Source: an uncultured delta proteobacterium
GTDB taxonomy: Bacteria > Desulfobacterota > Desulfobacteria > Desulfobacterales > JAFDCJ01
Reading direction: 5' to 3'
Length of the DNA stretch: 64,000 nucleotides
NCBI GenBank assembly: GCA_963769935.1
Contig: CAVYNY010000020.1
Location: forward strand, 160,001-224,000
A program made the position numbers and the translations under genes. The notes under the pieces are model-generated. The model saw nothing but the letters and a program-made list of their open reading frames with translations. It searched no databases and was not told the DNA's origin. Below are positions 1-5,862 of this stretch, piece by piece. Numbering within the stretch: the stretch's first letter is position 1; the number at the start of each line of letters is the position of its first letter.

Positions 1-754
1 ATACCGCCGGATTCCTGGATGACTTCATAAACCGTCCTGACCCGGATGCCCTGGCCGTGATGCTGAAAAACGTTGAAACAGCTCGGACAGGCTACCAGAA
101 CGGTCTTGACGCCCCGGCCTGATAAATAAGCGATCATCTCACCGAACATGGATTCGAAATAGGCCCGGCGACCCAGGTCATGGGAAGGTTTGGTGCAGCA
201 GTCGAGCACGATTCCGATGGCGGGAATGATTTTCTGCAAATGCCGAAACATCCGCCGGGTCACCTCCGGCCGGGTTCCCGGCAGATTGCAGCCCGGGAAA
301 AATACCGTATCGCAGCCCCGCGGCAGCCCATACCATGAAAACAGAGGCCGAAGTGCCGCGCTTTTCATAGCCTAAAATCGCTCCGGTAGGCGGCTTTGTC
401 GAAATGGCCGCCGGCCGACATACAGCCGGCGCATCTCCAGAAAAAGGCCGCAGGGATCAAGGTTTTCCGGGCAGACAGCATTGCACAGGCCGCATAAACT
501 GCATTCATAGGCTATCGCCAGATGCCGGGCGCGAGGAGAAATCAAGACTCCGATCGCATGGCTTTGGGTGTGCCGTAATGGGTTAAAAAGGCACACTCCC
601 TGGTGCAGGCGCCGCACTCCGTGCAACGTTGCCGGATATCCTTTAGATACGGTTCCAAAGCGGGCGGCGCCTTGGCCTGGAAACCGCTTCGGCACGGCTT
701 CAAATCCCCTGATTTCCCGCCGGAGCGGTCTCGATTTTTTAATTTTCTGCTCAT
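1..754 (-). CDS. Fe-S oxidoreductase (4Fe-4S dicluster + CCG domain); runs off window start; frameshifted
   Basis: Stitched frames give CTECGACTRECAF...YECSLCGLCNAVCP...VFFPGCNLPG...DCCTKP...VACPSC; at least 2 indels (near 555 and 400). Confidence 0.75.
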
Positions 755-1287
755 TCAGACTTTTCCATCGGATAGCCGGCCCCTTTCCAGGCGAAGATTC
801 CGCCCGGGTAGCGGTAGACATTCTTATAGCCGAGCTTGACGGCCCAGGCCGCCCCGTTGTGGCTGCGCGTGCATTTGACAAACCCGCAGTAGATGACGAT
901 GGTTTTATTTTTGTCGCTGCCCAGCAGTTTTATAAAATCTTCCTGGGATTTGCCGTCGGTCTCCTGGGTGTTCCACTGGGGCATGTCCGGGATGGGAAAC
1001 AAAAACTGCACCGCGCCCGGCACATGATTTTTTTTGTAGCTGGCCTCATAGGGCATGGTGTCCACGATCACCATGTCCTTGCCGGCATCGATCCATTCTT
1101 TGAGTTCGGCGGTGGCGACCACATCGTATCCGCCCCGCTTCACGTCCCGCACGAGCTTGACCGCTTCGGTTTCCTTTTCCACTTCCTGTTCGAATTTGTT
1201 CTCGAACAGGGCGGCGGCCGGCCCGGCCAGGATGAACACCAGAATACCCGCCATCATCAGTTTCCGCACCGAATTAAATGTACGCAT
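751..1287 (-). CDS. Exported rhodanese-like domain protein
   Basis: Signal peptide (MRTFNSVRK...AAA), IVDTMP...HVPGA, active-site loop YCGFVKCTRS, YPGGIFAW; GGAGG RBS. Confidence 0.85.
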   Translation of the reverse strand: MRTFNSVRKLMMAGILVFILAGPAAALFENKFEQEVEKETEAVKLVRDVKRGGYDVVATAELKEWIDAGKDMVIVDTMPYEASYKKNHVPGAVQFLFPIPDMPQWNTQETDGKSQEDFIKLLGSDKNKTIVIYCGFVKCTRSHNGAAWAVKLGYKNVYRYPGGIFAWKGAGYPMEKSE

Positions 1288-1773
1288 CTTCCGTCCTCCT
1301 TTTTTTTGCCAAGTTTTCTGATTATTAATGTTATCTTTACCGGCTGGATGGTACGGTAGCGGCGCCATCCATACATAAACCCAATTCCCGCCAGCATGGC
1401 CAGGTCACGGTAGAGGGACTCCCTGCAGGCCGTGGAAGGCCTTGGCTTCGGGATCGTCCGGGCCGAAGCAGCCGCAGTCCACGTCCAGCCCCATCCGGAT
1501 GCCGTAGCCCAATATGGCGATAAACAGCAACAGCAAACCGGCGATCACCGCCAGGCTGCCTTCGATCTCGCACAGCAGCCCGATGCCGCCGGCCACTTCC
1601 AGGGCCGGCAGGACGACGGCCACCGGCATGAGCAGGACTTGCGGCAGGATGCCGTAGGCCTCTATCAGAACGGCAAAGGTCCTGGGCTCCAGAAGTTTTA
1701 CGCACCCGGCATATATAAAGATGATCCCCAGACCCCAGCGGGCCAGTTTGTAGATCCAATCAACAGTTTTCAT
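1257..1773 (-). CDS. MauE/DoxX family redox-associated membrane protein (frameshift near 1420)
   Basis: LARWGLGIIFIYAG..KL, LPALEV, DVDCGCFG; C-terminus SLYRDLAML continues in another frame. Confidence 0.8.
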
Positions 1774-1817
1774 TGTGATGATCCCGCGAAAAAAACGCCC
1801 GGACTCGTCAACCGTCA

Positions 1818-2564
1818 TCATTCCCGGGCGAGAAGTGCCGCTCCCAGGGCCCCGACCAACTGCGGATCCTGCGGGCTCAGAATGCGACGGTCCAGTTTTT
1901 CTTCCAACAGCACCCGCATGCAGGGGTTTTTGGCCACCCCGCCGGTAAAGACGATATCCCCCTCCGACGACACCCGGTTGATCATGCCGGCGGCCCGGCG
2001 AATGACGCTGCTGTGCAGCCCCCGGGCGATTTCCCGCCGGTTCTGCCCCCTGGCGATCAGGGAAGTGACCTCGGATTCGGCAAATACCGTGCACATGCTG
2101 GAAATGTTGAGATCTTTTTCCGCCAGGAGGGCTTCGCTGCCGAATTCTTCGATTGCAAAGCCCAATGTTCGGGCCATGATTTCCAGAAATTTTCCGGTGC
2201 CGGCGGCGCAGCGGTCGTTCATTTCGAATTTTTTCACCCGGCCGTTGTCGAACAGCGAGATGGCCTTGCTGTCCTGCCCGCCGATATCCAGCACGGTGCG
2301 CACAGCCGGGAAAAACGCGCGGGCCCCTCTGGCATGGGCTTTGATCTCCGTAACCGTCGGGGCGTCAAAGGCGATCTCGAACAGGTTGCGGCCATAGCCG
2401 GTTGCCATGACACGATCATAGGCAATTCCGTCGACCAGCTTTTGGGCCTCGTCGATGGGATCAAAGCCGGTGTCGGCCTGCAGGCTGATAACGATTTCGC
2501 CCGCCTCATCCACCACCACCAGCTCGATGGTGCGTGAGCCGATATCAATTCCCGCAAAGCGCAT
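1818..2564 (-). CDS. ATP-dependent activator/reductase (HgdC, BadF/BcrA family; DCCP-R-like)
   Basis: GIDIGS, ATGYGR, DIGGQDSK, MNDRCAAGTG, SSMCTVFAESE, TGGVAKN. Confidence 0.92.
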   Translation of the reverse strand: MRFAGIDIGSRTIELVVVDEAGEIVISLQADTGFDPIDEAQKLVDGIAYDRVMATGYGRNLFEIAFDAPTVTEIKAHARGARAFFPAVRTVLDIGGQDSKAISLFDNGRVKKFEMNDRCAAGTGKFLEIMARTLGFAIEEFGSEALLAEKDLNISSMCTVFAESEVTSLIARGQNRREIARGLHSSVIRRAAGMINRVSSEGDIVFTGGVAKNPCMRVLLEEKLDRRILSPQDPQLVGALGAALLARE

Positions 2565-2625
2565 ACTCACCTTAACTTCTCATACGATGCTTTCTAAAAT
2601 CCAATGCCGTCAGCCGGAAGCATCT

Positions 2626-2802: not shown

Positions 2803-4086
2803 CTACCGCAGCTGCTCGACAAAAGCCTCAACCCGGGTCTTCAGCTGGCCGATATCCTCCATGCTGTAGTCGGTTTCGATGCGCAGGCAGGGGATATTCT
2901 TTTCCTCCAGCGCTTTTTCCACCGGGATGGATTCCATCAGATACGGCTGGCAGAACTGCAGGCCGTAATGGATCACACCGTCGGCGTGGTAGGCGGCCAC
3001 CATTTCCCGGATATGGTTCAGGCGGTCCGGATTGGGCGTAAAAATGGCGCAATCGACCTTGAAAATAGCGATCCACGATGGCGTCCATCATTTCTTCCAC
3101 GGTCTGACCGGAATCATCTGTAAGGTTGCGGGTGCCGCGCTCGCCCACGCAGGACTCCTCGCCCACGATCACCCCGCCGGCGGTTTCCACAATCAGGGGC
3201 AGCTTCCAGTTGGGCACGGCCTGCGGGCAGCCGGAGACGAGAATCCGCGGGGTCTTGGGCGGGAAAACGCCCTTTTTTTCCGCAATCCGCTGCTCCAATT
3301 CGTCGCAGATTTTATTGACCGAGTCCGTAAACCGGGCCGGATTGTCGTAAAAGAAGACCTGGTTGGCCAGCAGGGCATCCAGGCCGGAGATGGGCGCCGG
3401 GTCGGCCTTACGCAGAGAGTGAGAGCCGATGGATGGCCGCCCGCTTGGCATTGACGGTCCGAATGGCCTGCTTCAGCGATTCGGCCGTGACAACAACACC
3501 CGTCAGTTTTTCGACCGCCGCCTTGAAACGCCCATATTCGGCCCGCAGCAAGTGCTTTGCCGTTTTCGGACTTGACCTGGGGCAGGTCCATCACGTAGAG
3601 GTTGTCAACCAGGGTATCAAGCGTTTCATAGGCCTTTTTCTTGCCGTCGCAGGTGTTTTCCCCCACGATCATGTCCGCGCTTTCCAGGTAGGGGCAGACC
3701 TTGCCGAGTTTAAACCCGAAGGATGATTTAATCAGGGCACAGGTGTTGCGGGGCAGCAGCTTTTCCACATCCTCGGTGGCAAAGTCGGCCCCGGAGCAAA
3801 GCCCCACCAGGGTGGCGTTGGCGGCCAGCACGATCTCCTCGGGCACGAAAACGCAATAGGAGCCGATGATTTTACGGCCGGCGGCCTTTTCGTCCAGCAA
3901 CTCCTTGATCCGCAAACCGTGGACCTCGCTCATGACGAAGTCAAAATAGCCCATCCCTTCCGGGCGGTCTTTCTGAGACAGGTAAATGTCCTGATAAGCT
4001 TTTCCCAAAACATCCAGCAGGGCGTCATGGGCTGCAAGATCGAGCCCCAGATCGGCCCACATCGAACGATAATCTTCACTCATCAT
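2803..4086 (-). CDS. Double-cubane-cluster anaerobic reductase (2-hydroxyacyl-CoA dehydratase family); several frameshifts
   Basis: N-terminus MWADLGLDLAAHD..RPEGMGYFD..HGLRIKEL and Cys motifs YCVFVPEE, GLCSG, RNTCALIKS, CPY, NTCDGKKK, SGCP, EESC, DCAIFTPN, QFCQPY across ORFs 3193-4086, 2828-3451 and 2803-3003. Confidence 0.85.
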
Positions 4087-4161
4087 GTGCTCCTTTCAAC
4101 GATTGCTGCCTTTTTTCCCCCCGGCGGTCAGGCCGGATGGATGCAGCGGTTGCGTGGTTTT

Positions 4162-4345
4162 TCATTCAGAACGCGGCAGTTTCCGGGAAAGTTCGGCTGG
4201 ACCGATACCGACAGCAAAGATAGCATTTTTGTCCAAATGACGAATTGACGATGGCAGGTTGGATACGATTTTGGCATTCGGCGTCGTCTAACAAACCCGG
4301 TTAGCTGATTCAATGTCCTCAGGTAAAGCCAAAAACGTCACTCAT
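4162..4345 (-). CDS. Putative small UxxU selenoprotein (not in the ORF track)
   Basis: GAGGT RBS then ATG at 4345: MSDVFGFT-TGA-GH-TGA-IS-(TAA)-PGLLDDAECQNRIQPAIVNSSFG; after removing one base in an A-run it reads QNAIFAVGIGPAELSRKLPRSE; hairpin at 4288-4304. Confidence 0.55.
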
Positions 4346-4411
4346 GGCGGACCTCGCGGAAGAGTTGCCCTTTCGATCAATTGGGGAGTAATTTTATAGA
4401 AATTTTATCGC

Positions 4412-4448
4412 ATGGAAAATATCGATATGTCAAACAGGAAATTCCGAT
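4412..4448. promoter_or_regulatory. Candidate tandem LysR boxes flanking a minus-strand TTGACA
   Basis: ATGG-N7-CGAT (4412-4426, contains T-N11-A) and ACAG-N7-CGAT (4434-4448), 22 bp apart. Confidence 0.35.
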
Positions 4449-4463
4449 AGAAATGGGAGGCTG

Positions 4464-5375
4464 TTAAGGTTTTTCCGATAGGAGGAAATCATGCATGGCC
4501 TGGCAGGATGGCGAAGCGATCCGCAGTTTATTGCGAATCAGAAAAAAGCTGCGCGACATCGAAAGTCCTTTGACCTTCAAAGCTTTGAGCAGTCCGGCTT
4601 TAACCTCGGTGTCGATGGCAATGGCGGAGAGGATCGACAGGCCGAGGCCGGATTTGATGCCCTCTTTGACGGCCGTCGAGGAGCCGAAACGGGCGGAGAC
4701 TTGAAGGACGTTGCTGCCGTTCTTATCGGATTCACGCAGATTGGCCTCCAGGATCTTCAGCGTCCCGGAGCCTTCCTCCCGCAATATAAATGGGATTCCC
4801 CGCAGCTCCTGCAGGGAGACGGACTTGCGCCGGGCCCACGGGTGCCGGGCCGGGACGGCCAGCACCAGATCGTCCTCCCACAGTTTCTGGCACAAGAGGT
4901 TGGGGTGCAGACTTTTTTTTCCGATAACCCCGATCTCCAGTTTACCTTCAAGGACCTGATTTTCAATTTCACTGCTGTCCGCGATGGTCAGTTTCACAGA
5001 TAAGTGCGGGTACTTATTCTTAAATCTGCTGACGAGACCCGGAAGAATATACTCACCGGGGATGGTGCTGCCGCCCATGGAAATTTCTCCCTGCTCCAGT
5101 CCGAGAAACTTTTCCATTTCCAATTGGGCCGTTTCTTTCATTTCCAACAGGAGGACGGCATGCTTGTACACTATTTCGCCGGCGGCCGTCGGCACCACTT
5201 TTCTACCCAGGCGGTCCAGCAGCCGGATTCCGATTTTTTTTTCAAGCGAGGCGATCCTTTCACTGACCGAGGCCTGAACCAGAAAAACAGCTTCCGCAGC
5301 CTTCGAAAAACTCTCCAATTCGACTACTTTGCAAAAAATTTCAAGCTCGCGAAAACTGAAATCAATATTCAGCAT
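4464..5375 (-). CDS. LysR family regulator (CysL-like; resembles the selenium-metabolism-associated LysR group)
   Basis: HTH FSKAAEAVFLVQASVS..LLDRLGR; GGSTIPGEYILP; REEGSGT; STAVKEGIKSGLG. Confidence 0.9.
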   Translation of the reverse strand: MLNIDFSFRELEIFCKVVELESFSKAAEAVFLVQASVSERIASLEKKIGIRLLDRLGRKVVPTAAGEIVYKHAVLLLEMKETAQLEMEKFLGLEQGEISMGGSTIPGEYILPGLVSRFKNKYPHLSVKLTIADSSEIENQVLEGKLEIGVIGKKSLHPNLLCQKLWEDDLVLAVPARHPWARRKSVSLQELRGIPFILREEGSGTLKILEANLRESDKNGSNVLQVSARFGSSTAVKEGIKSGLGLSILSAIAIDTEVKAGLLKALKVKGLSMSRSFFLIRNKLRIASPSCQAMHDFLLSEKP

Positions 5376-5390
5376 TTTCTGATTCTTCCT

Positions 5391-5414
5391 AATTAATCCG
5401 CCCTGAAAAATAGC
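5391..5414. repeat. AATT(A/C)ATCCGCC-ended repeat arm (also 9593-9685 and 30593-30687)
   Basis: aattaatccgccctgaaaaatagc is nearly the reverse complement of gctgtttttcagggcggatgaatt at 30664-30687. Confidence 0.65.
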
Positions 5415-5862
5415 TTCAGAAATTGAATATGGCATTCCGCGGCATTTTGCAAGGGTTGGAATTTTAGTTTGCGTTCAAGCATTCTGAAAAGGATTCTTTT
5501 CCCCCTCGGTCTGGAAGAAGCAATATAACCGGCAGTGCTTCAATGGCCGAGTTGTTTAGGGCTGAGCATTCCGCAAAAGTTTCGGAACCTTTGATTGACT
5601 TTATTGTCGATATCAGTATAAATCTTGAGCAGAAGCGTCAAAAGGGGGGCCACAGATTTTTGCGTAAAAGCCTATTCTTTCATTCTTCCCAACCCATCCC
5701 GGACAACGTACCCGCACCTTTGTCCGAAGACGGCATCCCGGCCTGGGATCCGGTGTTCATACACCCGCTCGCATTCAAAGCTAACCCTTATATGGATATG
5801 TCGCCGAATATATCAGTCTCTCCTGAGGCGGCGTTGTCATACCGATTCCGGAGAGCAAATCC

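Follow-up and report, generated by a model that had tools for sequence, protein, structure and literature searches.

A portable UGA-SECIS leader in Desulfobacterota is predicted to be a selenocysteine-sensing attenuator of selenium-linked operons

Decoding of UGA as selenocysteine (Sec) involves SelB, which reads the apical G-U of the SECIS hairpin, and without Sec-tRNA RF2 normally releases the peptide at UGA. In E. coli, Thanbichler and Bock are said to have found in 2002 a SECIS-like element in the selAB leader that is read by SelB and serves as a translational operator without a mini-gene. Bacterial selenium sensing and the swap between Sec and cysteine (Cys) enzymes have so far been explained by a LysR regulator and by polarity within a single selenoprotein gene. 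For the regulator, HrsM / LysR_Se, PMC9312934 and PMC11097638 report that selenium starvation brings in Cys isoenzymes. For polarity, Matson et al. 2013 (PMC3892789) describe Treponema primitia fdhF-Sec, in which a UGA-SECIS inside the selenoprotein gene turns that gene off without selenium; the same paper speaks of a rare-amino-acid attenuator as engineered, not as reported in nature. A back-up system that places Cys at UGA uses selC* tRNA-Cys, defined in PMC5389517 and PMC7609411 by U73, a UCA or GCA anticodon, A1:U72, and a following selB copy. Finally, double-cubane reductases occur in selD genomes in 955 of 970 cases, according to the preprint by Haft and Gwadz.

Here we show that a double-cubane reductase cluster of an uncultured delta proteobacterium is headed by a mini-gene that ends at a UGA with its own SECIS-like hairpin, and that this UGA-SECIS leader is real, widespread and apparently undescribed. 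The window, i.e. the whole stretch of DNA analysed, comprises 64,000 nucleotides (contig CAVYNY010000020.1, positions 160,001 to 224,000; assembly GCA_963769935.1). Its element is a cis-acting regulatory leader and not a redox carrier. Judged by comparative sequence analysis, the leader is very probably a translated UGA-SECIS selenium sensor, and it likely turns genes ON in selenium scarcity. Taken as a whole, it is probably a selenocysteine-sensing leader-peptide attenuator that is ON when selenium is scarce, with Rho as its probable agent; Rho-dependent transcription, considered by itself, is the output that we favour somewhat more cautiously. A literature search of main texts that covered few subscription journals found no description of such a leader. 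In their main texts, PMC9312934, PMC5389517, PMC3892789, and the preprint by Haft and Gwadz do not use the word "leader" at all, and PMC8124441 has it once, in another sense.

Leader homologues were collected with a pattern scan of GTDB contigs (34 of 64 parts), in which the ATG was left free at 9-18 nt and at least 121 matches were obtained. The ATG lay exactly eight codons before the TGA in 101 of the 121 pattern matches, with four or fewer at any other spacing; 19 of the 121 were dropped as chance matches, namely 17 with other ATG spacings together with L093 and L105, which are non-deltaproteobacterial and without hairpin. Eight duplicates were removed, 118 leaders were aligned, and a covariance model was then built. 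Left out were L058, in which leader and next gene are fused, and loci that were too short or contained N; L120, with a join right after the pairing strand, was excluded from downstream tests. Downstream ORFs were sent to NCBIfam (81 of the 137 listed). Contigs of public sequencing runs were compared with the window, leaving out runs with small shares; the RNA run X18 yielded no contig across the leader.

The core pattern matched once in the window versus 0.00 in 100 shuffles, and a stretch of approximately 140 nt (4367-4226) proved to be conserved in many families when 301 genomes of the order were searched at the DNA level. The same element stands upstream of the orthologous reductase genes of two same-genus genomes. 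Within the order, the covariance model matched 50 of 151 genomes, and within the phylum 9 of 151; the window's genome holds a single match. Of all matches, 70 were examined, and 61 of these were new and had not been selected for TGA. Among the carriers with a name are Desulfosarcina, Desulfobacca, Dethiosulfatarculus with three copies, and Syntrophales and Geobacteraceae records; Desulfosarcina alkanivorans and Dethiosulfatarculus sandiegensis are cultured. Of 151 genomes of the order, 149 gave a selA match; both of those that gave none carry leaders. Rfam covariance models gave no matches up to E 5 in window positions 3900-4700. At five loci (L230, L235, L236, L239, L240) two leaders stand back to back and face outward; in three of these one leader precedes selC*-selB and the other a Cys-type HdrC-like operon, and in the remaining two both precede redox operons. 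In L058 (418-1053) the leader's first eight codons are fused in frame to yedF and the UGA and hairpin are gone, either through a natural constitutive deletion or through an assembly join.

Features of the window are summarized in Table 1. The LysR gene lies directly upstream of the leader in the same direction, and the leader heads a cluster that begins with the double-cubane reductase. This gene run closes with selD (Sec form) and yedF, which are encoded on the same strand but outside the window, 1.5-3.3 kb beyond its first base. They are followed, again on this strand, by an ABC transporter whose binding protein has 529 aa (G000:C20:153971-155558 and neighbours), a candidate selenium-compound importer. 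The sequence-only reading from which this work started had made its proposal depend on a Sec machinery, and tRNA-Sec (selC), selA, selB, and two selD genes are all present in the genome; selA is in two pieces in the assembly (G000:C22:678107-679262), probably another indel error. The reductase gene shows one-base gaps at 3417 and 3552 in alignment with the contig of run X1; since that contig is without these one-base insertions, the breaks in the double-cubane gene are probably assembly errors. Elsewhere in the window, the ORF 6026-7216 matches both TIGR04282 and TIGR04283 above cut-off (arsenosugar-type glycosyltransferases), through either a fusion or an assembly frameshift.

Table 1. Positions of the leader elements and neighbouring genes within the window.
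Feature	Position	Strand	Remark
Selenium-metabolism LysR regulator gene	4464..5435	-	NCBIfam NF040786, 275 bits vs cut-off 250
LysR-type box (ATxG-N7-CxAT-like), putative binding site	4434..4448	-	Abuts -35 hexamer
TTGACA, likely -35 hexamer of leader promoter	4428..4433	-	-10 unclear in window copy
Second LysR-type box	4412..4426	-	Within promoter spacer
Shine-Dalgarno of mini-gene, GAGGT	4351..4355	-	SD-like word in 101/118 homologues
Mini-gene codons 1-8, MSDVFGFT	4322..4345	-	Family consensus M-x-x-x-F-G-F-T
Helix P1 5' strand	4328..4338	-	Mini-gene codons 3-6
Invariant UGA, predicted Sec/stop decision codon	4319..4321	-	TGA in 179/179 leaders
Second TGA, incidental	4310..4312	-	Outside family; 6/179
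SECIS-like hairpin	4288..4304	-	5-bp stem, G-U apex +23/+24 after UGA
TAA within hairpin stem	4301..4303	-	Ends read-through product at 14 residues
Helix P1 3' strand	4265..4275	-	Complementary to mini-gene
C-rich, G-poor tract	4205..4264	-	Predicted Rho loading (rut) site
Double-cubane reductase gene, first of controlled cluster	2828..4086	-	NF040772 in two pieces
ATP-dependent activase	1818..2570	-	TIGR00241, 228 bits
DoxX-like membrane protein, rhodanese, Fe-S dicluster protein pieces	3..1821	-	

That the mini-gene is translated is predicted from several features of its homologues. These include the Shine-Dalgarno word, which coincides with a purine peak at -12 to -8, the fixed ATG spacing, in-frame insertions (L006, L170, L237), and synonymous changes around an in-frame UGA; an in-frame ATG is absent from the expected place in 4 of 179 copies. 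Before the UGA, synonymous codons for Gly, Phe, and Thr are used freely (all four Thr and all four Gly codons occur in G-F-T) and residue changes are rare, bearing in mind that approximately 100 of the copies came from a pattern demanding the core motif. No leader has TAA, TAG, or a Cys codon in place of the UGA, although TGA makes up only 1446 of the 3664 stops of long frames in the window's genome. The covariance-model matches made no such demand, and 58 of the 61 new ones have TGA at codon 9; in the remaining three the same motif is likewise followed by TGA.

Two helices accompany the mini-gene. In the 118-row alignment, 92.7% of cells are paired in the SECIS-like hairpin, where four of five pairs change on both sides, and 95.5% are paired in P1; for both helices together 93.9% of cells pair, compared with 17-49% when the partners are slid. 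The covariation score was reached by 0 of 500 shuffles, a control that is inflated by relatedness among the leaders. One P1 pair is C-G in 63 leaders and U-A in 41. The 3' strand of P1 lies approximately 26 nt past the hairpin apex and pairs with codons 3-6 over a median of 11 contiguous pairs (approximately 6 in shuffles), with at least seven pairs in 107 of 118 leaders. Pairing of P1 exceeded a probability of 0.5 in 71 of 104 folds and reached 0.77 in the window copy. As in known attenuators, P1 is a helix that involves the ORF and that a ribosome would block, and the short ORF, which contains a codon that fits the controlled pathway, lies behind the promoter and ahead of the first gene.

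By linking these elements, the following course of events can be proposed. With selenium present, SelB and Sec-tRNA would decode the UGA, and the ribosome would run 5-10 codons to the next stop and leave; P1 would then close over the mini-gene, the C-rich tract would lie open, and Rho would end transcription. With selenium absent, the ribosome would wait at the UGA, where the G-F-T peptide would slow release by RF2. The waiting ribosome would block P1, and the freed hairpin and pairing strand could pair with sequence beyond the C-rich tract and hide it, such that Rho would be kept off and transcription would continue. Stalling by G-F-T at the undecoded UGA is an assumption made by analogy, and ribosome arrest at the UGA and the alternative fold are the weakest links of the model.

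The proposed output draws on the C-rich tract of 60-80 nt that follows the P1 strand. C exceeds G in 110 of 117 leaders with a pooled C/G ratio of 1.84, compared with 45% and 0.99 in 2838 control upstream windows, and the window copy holds 15 C to 10 G. An intrinsic terminator (hairpin and U-tract) was found in 6 of 178 leaders and not in the window copy. A C-rich, G-poor tract after the ORF and a rho gene in the genome are the features expected of a tnaC-type leader, termination itself being a prediction. That the same UGA-SECIS sensor, working in the same direction, acts instead on translation or RNA stability, through a hidden downstream SD, SelB as repressor, or nuclease access, is unlikely, but it is the rival that survives best, and it draws on the folding data. 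The alternative helix, in which the hairpin and P1 strand pair beyond the tract, beats shuffles (p<=0.05) in 45 of 178 leaders, as opposed to 12 of 149 in a far control. Some subfamilies (L062, L109) show it clearly, but the window's subtype has almost no signal (p 0.22 in the window copy, not significant). In a duplex test of the pairing strand alone, best partners fell at +50 to +59 in 39 of 104 leaders, with an energy signal in only 13 of 104 and a negative result for the window copy. Masking of the ribosome footprint shifted the predicted exposure of the tract only slightly, the mean unpaired fraction going from 0.53 to 0.51 with a decrease in 67 of 104 leaders. The anti-termination fold as part of the attenuator is weakly supported. 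Against a translational or stability output stand the prevalence of the C-rich tract, the next start codon, which is usually 150-400 nt away at a variable distance, and the 20 of 179 leaders that are directly followed by a long-arm tRNA; such a first product speaks for transcription as the output.

A second control layer, at initiation, is suggested by promoter elements at fixed offsets. In 78 of 149 leaders TTGAC lies between -70 and -61 relative to the ATG, and LysR-type boxes, which follow the T-N11-A rule, occur in 137 of 149 leaders versus 84 expected from shuffles, most commonly at offsets to TTGAC of -15 (75), -46/-47 (67), and +7 (42). A promoter scan of the window copy returned only an alternative weak site at 4418-4391.

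The direction of control that we prefer, ON in scarcity, follows from the genes behind the leaders. Named matches include selD, selB, yedE, yedF, ExtI/Opr porins, and PstS- and ModA-like binding proteins, as well as double-cubane reductases with activase, DoxX/rhodanese, Fdh, HdrA, HdrC-like proteins, and MvhD; 12 of the 81 ORFs scanned have no family at E 1e-8. This composition of uptake, activation, and selenium-free back-up matches the needs of a selenium-short cell. The redox paralogues behind leaders are Cys forms throughout (Fdh 5/5, MvhD 16/16, HdrA 15/15; 36/36 in total), and the window genome's own set shows Sec in 11 of 18 motif matches. Among 43 MvhD matches better than E 1e-31 in five leader-bearing genomes, TGA was found in 0 of 9 within 10 kb behind a leader and in 19 of 34 elsewhere (Fisher p 0.0025, for kin that are not independent). 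SelD is the exception to the Cys pattern, being the Sec form in 7 of 7 cases. Among the transporters, PstS-like and ModA-like ABC binding proteins under the leader (L033, L045, L108, L099, L135) are candidate selenite or selenate importers. Another recurrent product, of approximately 165 aa and without NCBIfam match, is encoded immediately behind leaders and ahead of selD or HdrC-like genes (G000:C20:158982-159483; L065, L098, L101, L107, L122, L136, L190).

The tRNAs that directly follow leaders (L067, L068, L069, L076, L083, L115, L119, L124, L145, L167, L168, L179, L201, L203, L230, L232, L236, L240, L254, L256) are called tRNA-Sec by ARAGORN, yet they look like selC*-type tRNA-Cys: all 20 have U73, where this genome's tRNA-Sec has G73. 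Most carry a UCA anticodon, many show A1:U72, and a selB copy often comes next. In the five loci checked, cysS* was not seen. Partial tRNA remnants occur in L106 and L188, and the copy in L202 has the anticodon ATA. L109 and L195 hold a second kind of long-arm tRNA-Cys (GCA) between mvhD and hdrA, approximately 620 nt behind the leader.

These gene contents bear most on the opposite logic, whereby read-through would couple the ribosome to RNA polymerase and genes would be ON with selenium and cut off without it. We regard this as quite improbable, although fdhF-Sec of T. primitia provides a natural precedent (PMC3892789), the tract would become exposed if RF2 released the peptide at an undecoded UGA, and the SelD behind leaders is itself a selenoprotein. 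The Cys forms among the redox paralogues, the absence of TGA from leader-linked MvhD, and the selC*-type tRNA-Cys all argue against it, as does the predicted read-through, which would stop after 5-10 codons and hence before the tract.

An in-frame UGA, a 3' hairpin with an apical G at SECIS spacing, and the selA, selB, selC, and selD genes together make the UGA a predicted Sec insertion site. The apex at +23/+24 compares with approximately +20 (Fdh) and +25 (HdrA) after the Sec codons of the window's own genome. The alternative that the UGA is an ordinary stop, with a hairpin of structural significance only and a leader that senses RF2 activity, a charged tRNA, or a small molecule acting TnaC-like on a G-F-T arrest peptide, gains something from TnaC, which also arrests at UGA (PMC8429421), and from the hairpin, which is thermodynamically weak (stem pairing p>0.5 in 23 of 104 ViennaRNA equilibrium folds). 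It is nevertheless rather implausible given the match of hairpin spacing and G-U apex to real Sec codons, the covariation of the stem, and the selenium-specific regulon.

The UGA-to-hairpin spacer is 16-22 nt among homologues, so all three frames occur after the UGA; the frame is not conserved, and the next stop follows after 9 to 71 codons. An unconstrained frame speaks for a decoding test rather than a product. A functional selenopeptide of 14-19 residues, serving as selenium store, carrier, or RiPP precursor, is accordingly a very remote prospect: G-F-T-U is conserved at the protein level, but frame, length, and sequence after the U all vary, and the element goes together with promoters and forms base pairs within the mRNA that carries it.

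The sequence-only reading had seen here a hidden protein of approximately 60 aa with two Sec residues in UxxU spacing. Its SD and its positions for the ATG (4345), both TGAs, and the TAA were exact, with GH encoded between the two TGAs and IS ahead of the TAA, and the hairpin, beginning 14 nt after the first TGA, is confirmed in the sequence. It was also correct on the selenium link and in holding that ORF callers miss the mini-gene, and its identification of the first UGA as a Sec codon with its own SECIS-like hairpin is very probable. The second TGA is another matter, since codon 12 is TGA in only 6 of 179 homologues and Cys in a further 6 of 179. The TAA had been suspected as a read error and is intact in contigs of all four public runs (X1, X2, X6, X8): the X1 contig, from a run possibly of the window's own sample, covers 4090-4480 with one substitution and no gap, and the related X2, X6, and X8 contigs list no change at 4301-4303. 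TAA stands at codon 15 in 21 of 116 homologues, and the third option that had been offered for it, the true end of a 14-aa peptide, is the correct one. The proposed removal of one base from an A-run did find a counterpart in the contigs, as the base at 4226 is absent from the X2, X6, and X8 contigs; the TAA, however, closes the frame at codon 15 before this position is reached. In the X2 contig the second TGA reads TGT (Cys at codon 12). No NCBIfam family was found for the frame read through both TGA and TAA. As a candidate UxxU/CxxC redox selenoprotein, the frame shows neither two conserved Sec/Cys in xx spacing nor conservation after the Sec codon. A role as redox partner of the double-cubane protein was misjudged, since many unrelated operons with a link to selenium have this leader in front of them. 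Thus, in spite of assembly indels nearby, the real deletion in three related contigs, and the one Cys codon, a UxxU selenoprotein broken by sequencing error and partnering the reductase is largely refuted and of negligible probability, the TAA being kept in relatives as well and most leader copies not lying beside a double-cubane gene.

Returning to the attenuator, we lean slightly towards its fullest form, a natural Sec attenuator in which a portable UGA-SECIS leader and a G-F-T arrest peptide run a selenium-starvation regulon via Rho with built-in feedback. In Desulfobacterota this regulon would comprise uptake, selenophosphate synthesis, Cys isoenzymes, and the selC*/selB* Cys-at-UGA system; the feedback would arise because induced Cys-tRNA(UCA) could read through the sensor codon. 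The leader of approximately 140 nt marks members of the selenium regulon and thereby links the double-cubane reductase, PstS/ModA-like transporters, and porins to a shortage of selenium; it could also be used as a compact biosensor for the incorporation of Sec.

Among described systems, the leader resembles E. coli tnaC (PMC8429421), a Rho-dependent leader-peptide attenuator in which a short ORF likewise terminates at UGA and is followed by a C-rich tract but no intrinsic terminator; ribosome dwell time at the UGA is the proposed signal. The two differ in that the Sec leader would respond to Sec-tRNA/SelB at the SECIS, whereas tnaC responds to free Trp in the tunnel, and in ORF length (8 versus 24 codons). 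Unlike in tnaC, moreover, the tract starts approximately 55 nt after the UGA, beyond ribosome cover, so an RNA switch is needed. With the trpL/hisL attenuators, as outlined in the introduction of PMC3892789, the leader shares an ORF that tests the supply of one charged tRNA, mutually exclusive helices that involve the ORF, and supply genes that are ON in starvation; it differs from them in relying on one recoded stop codon, with SelB and SECIS, rather than runs of sense codons, and in being without the terminator hairpin and U-tract save for the few leaders noted above. A SECIS-type hairpin in the leader of selenium genes is a likeness to the selAB leader of E. coli, from which the Sec leader is set apart by its conserved SD, ATG, frame, and UGA.

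Coupling of UGA-SECIS decoding to transcription elongation is shared with T. primitia fdhF-Sec, as described in PMC3892789; unlike that gene-internal element, however, the Sec leader is a dedicated and portable one that stands before supply and back-up genes with the opposite predicted sign. The selenium-type LysR gene and LysR-type boxes upstream of the window leader recall HrsM/LysR_Se, which is protein control at initiation; the Sec leader would add a second, post-initiation layer. With the selC*/selB* system, as characterized in PMC5389517 and PMC7609411, the connection is the tRNAs behind 20 leaders, which share its U73, mostly its UCA anticodon, and often its A1:U72, and the Sec leader would be the missing control element of this back-up system.
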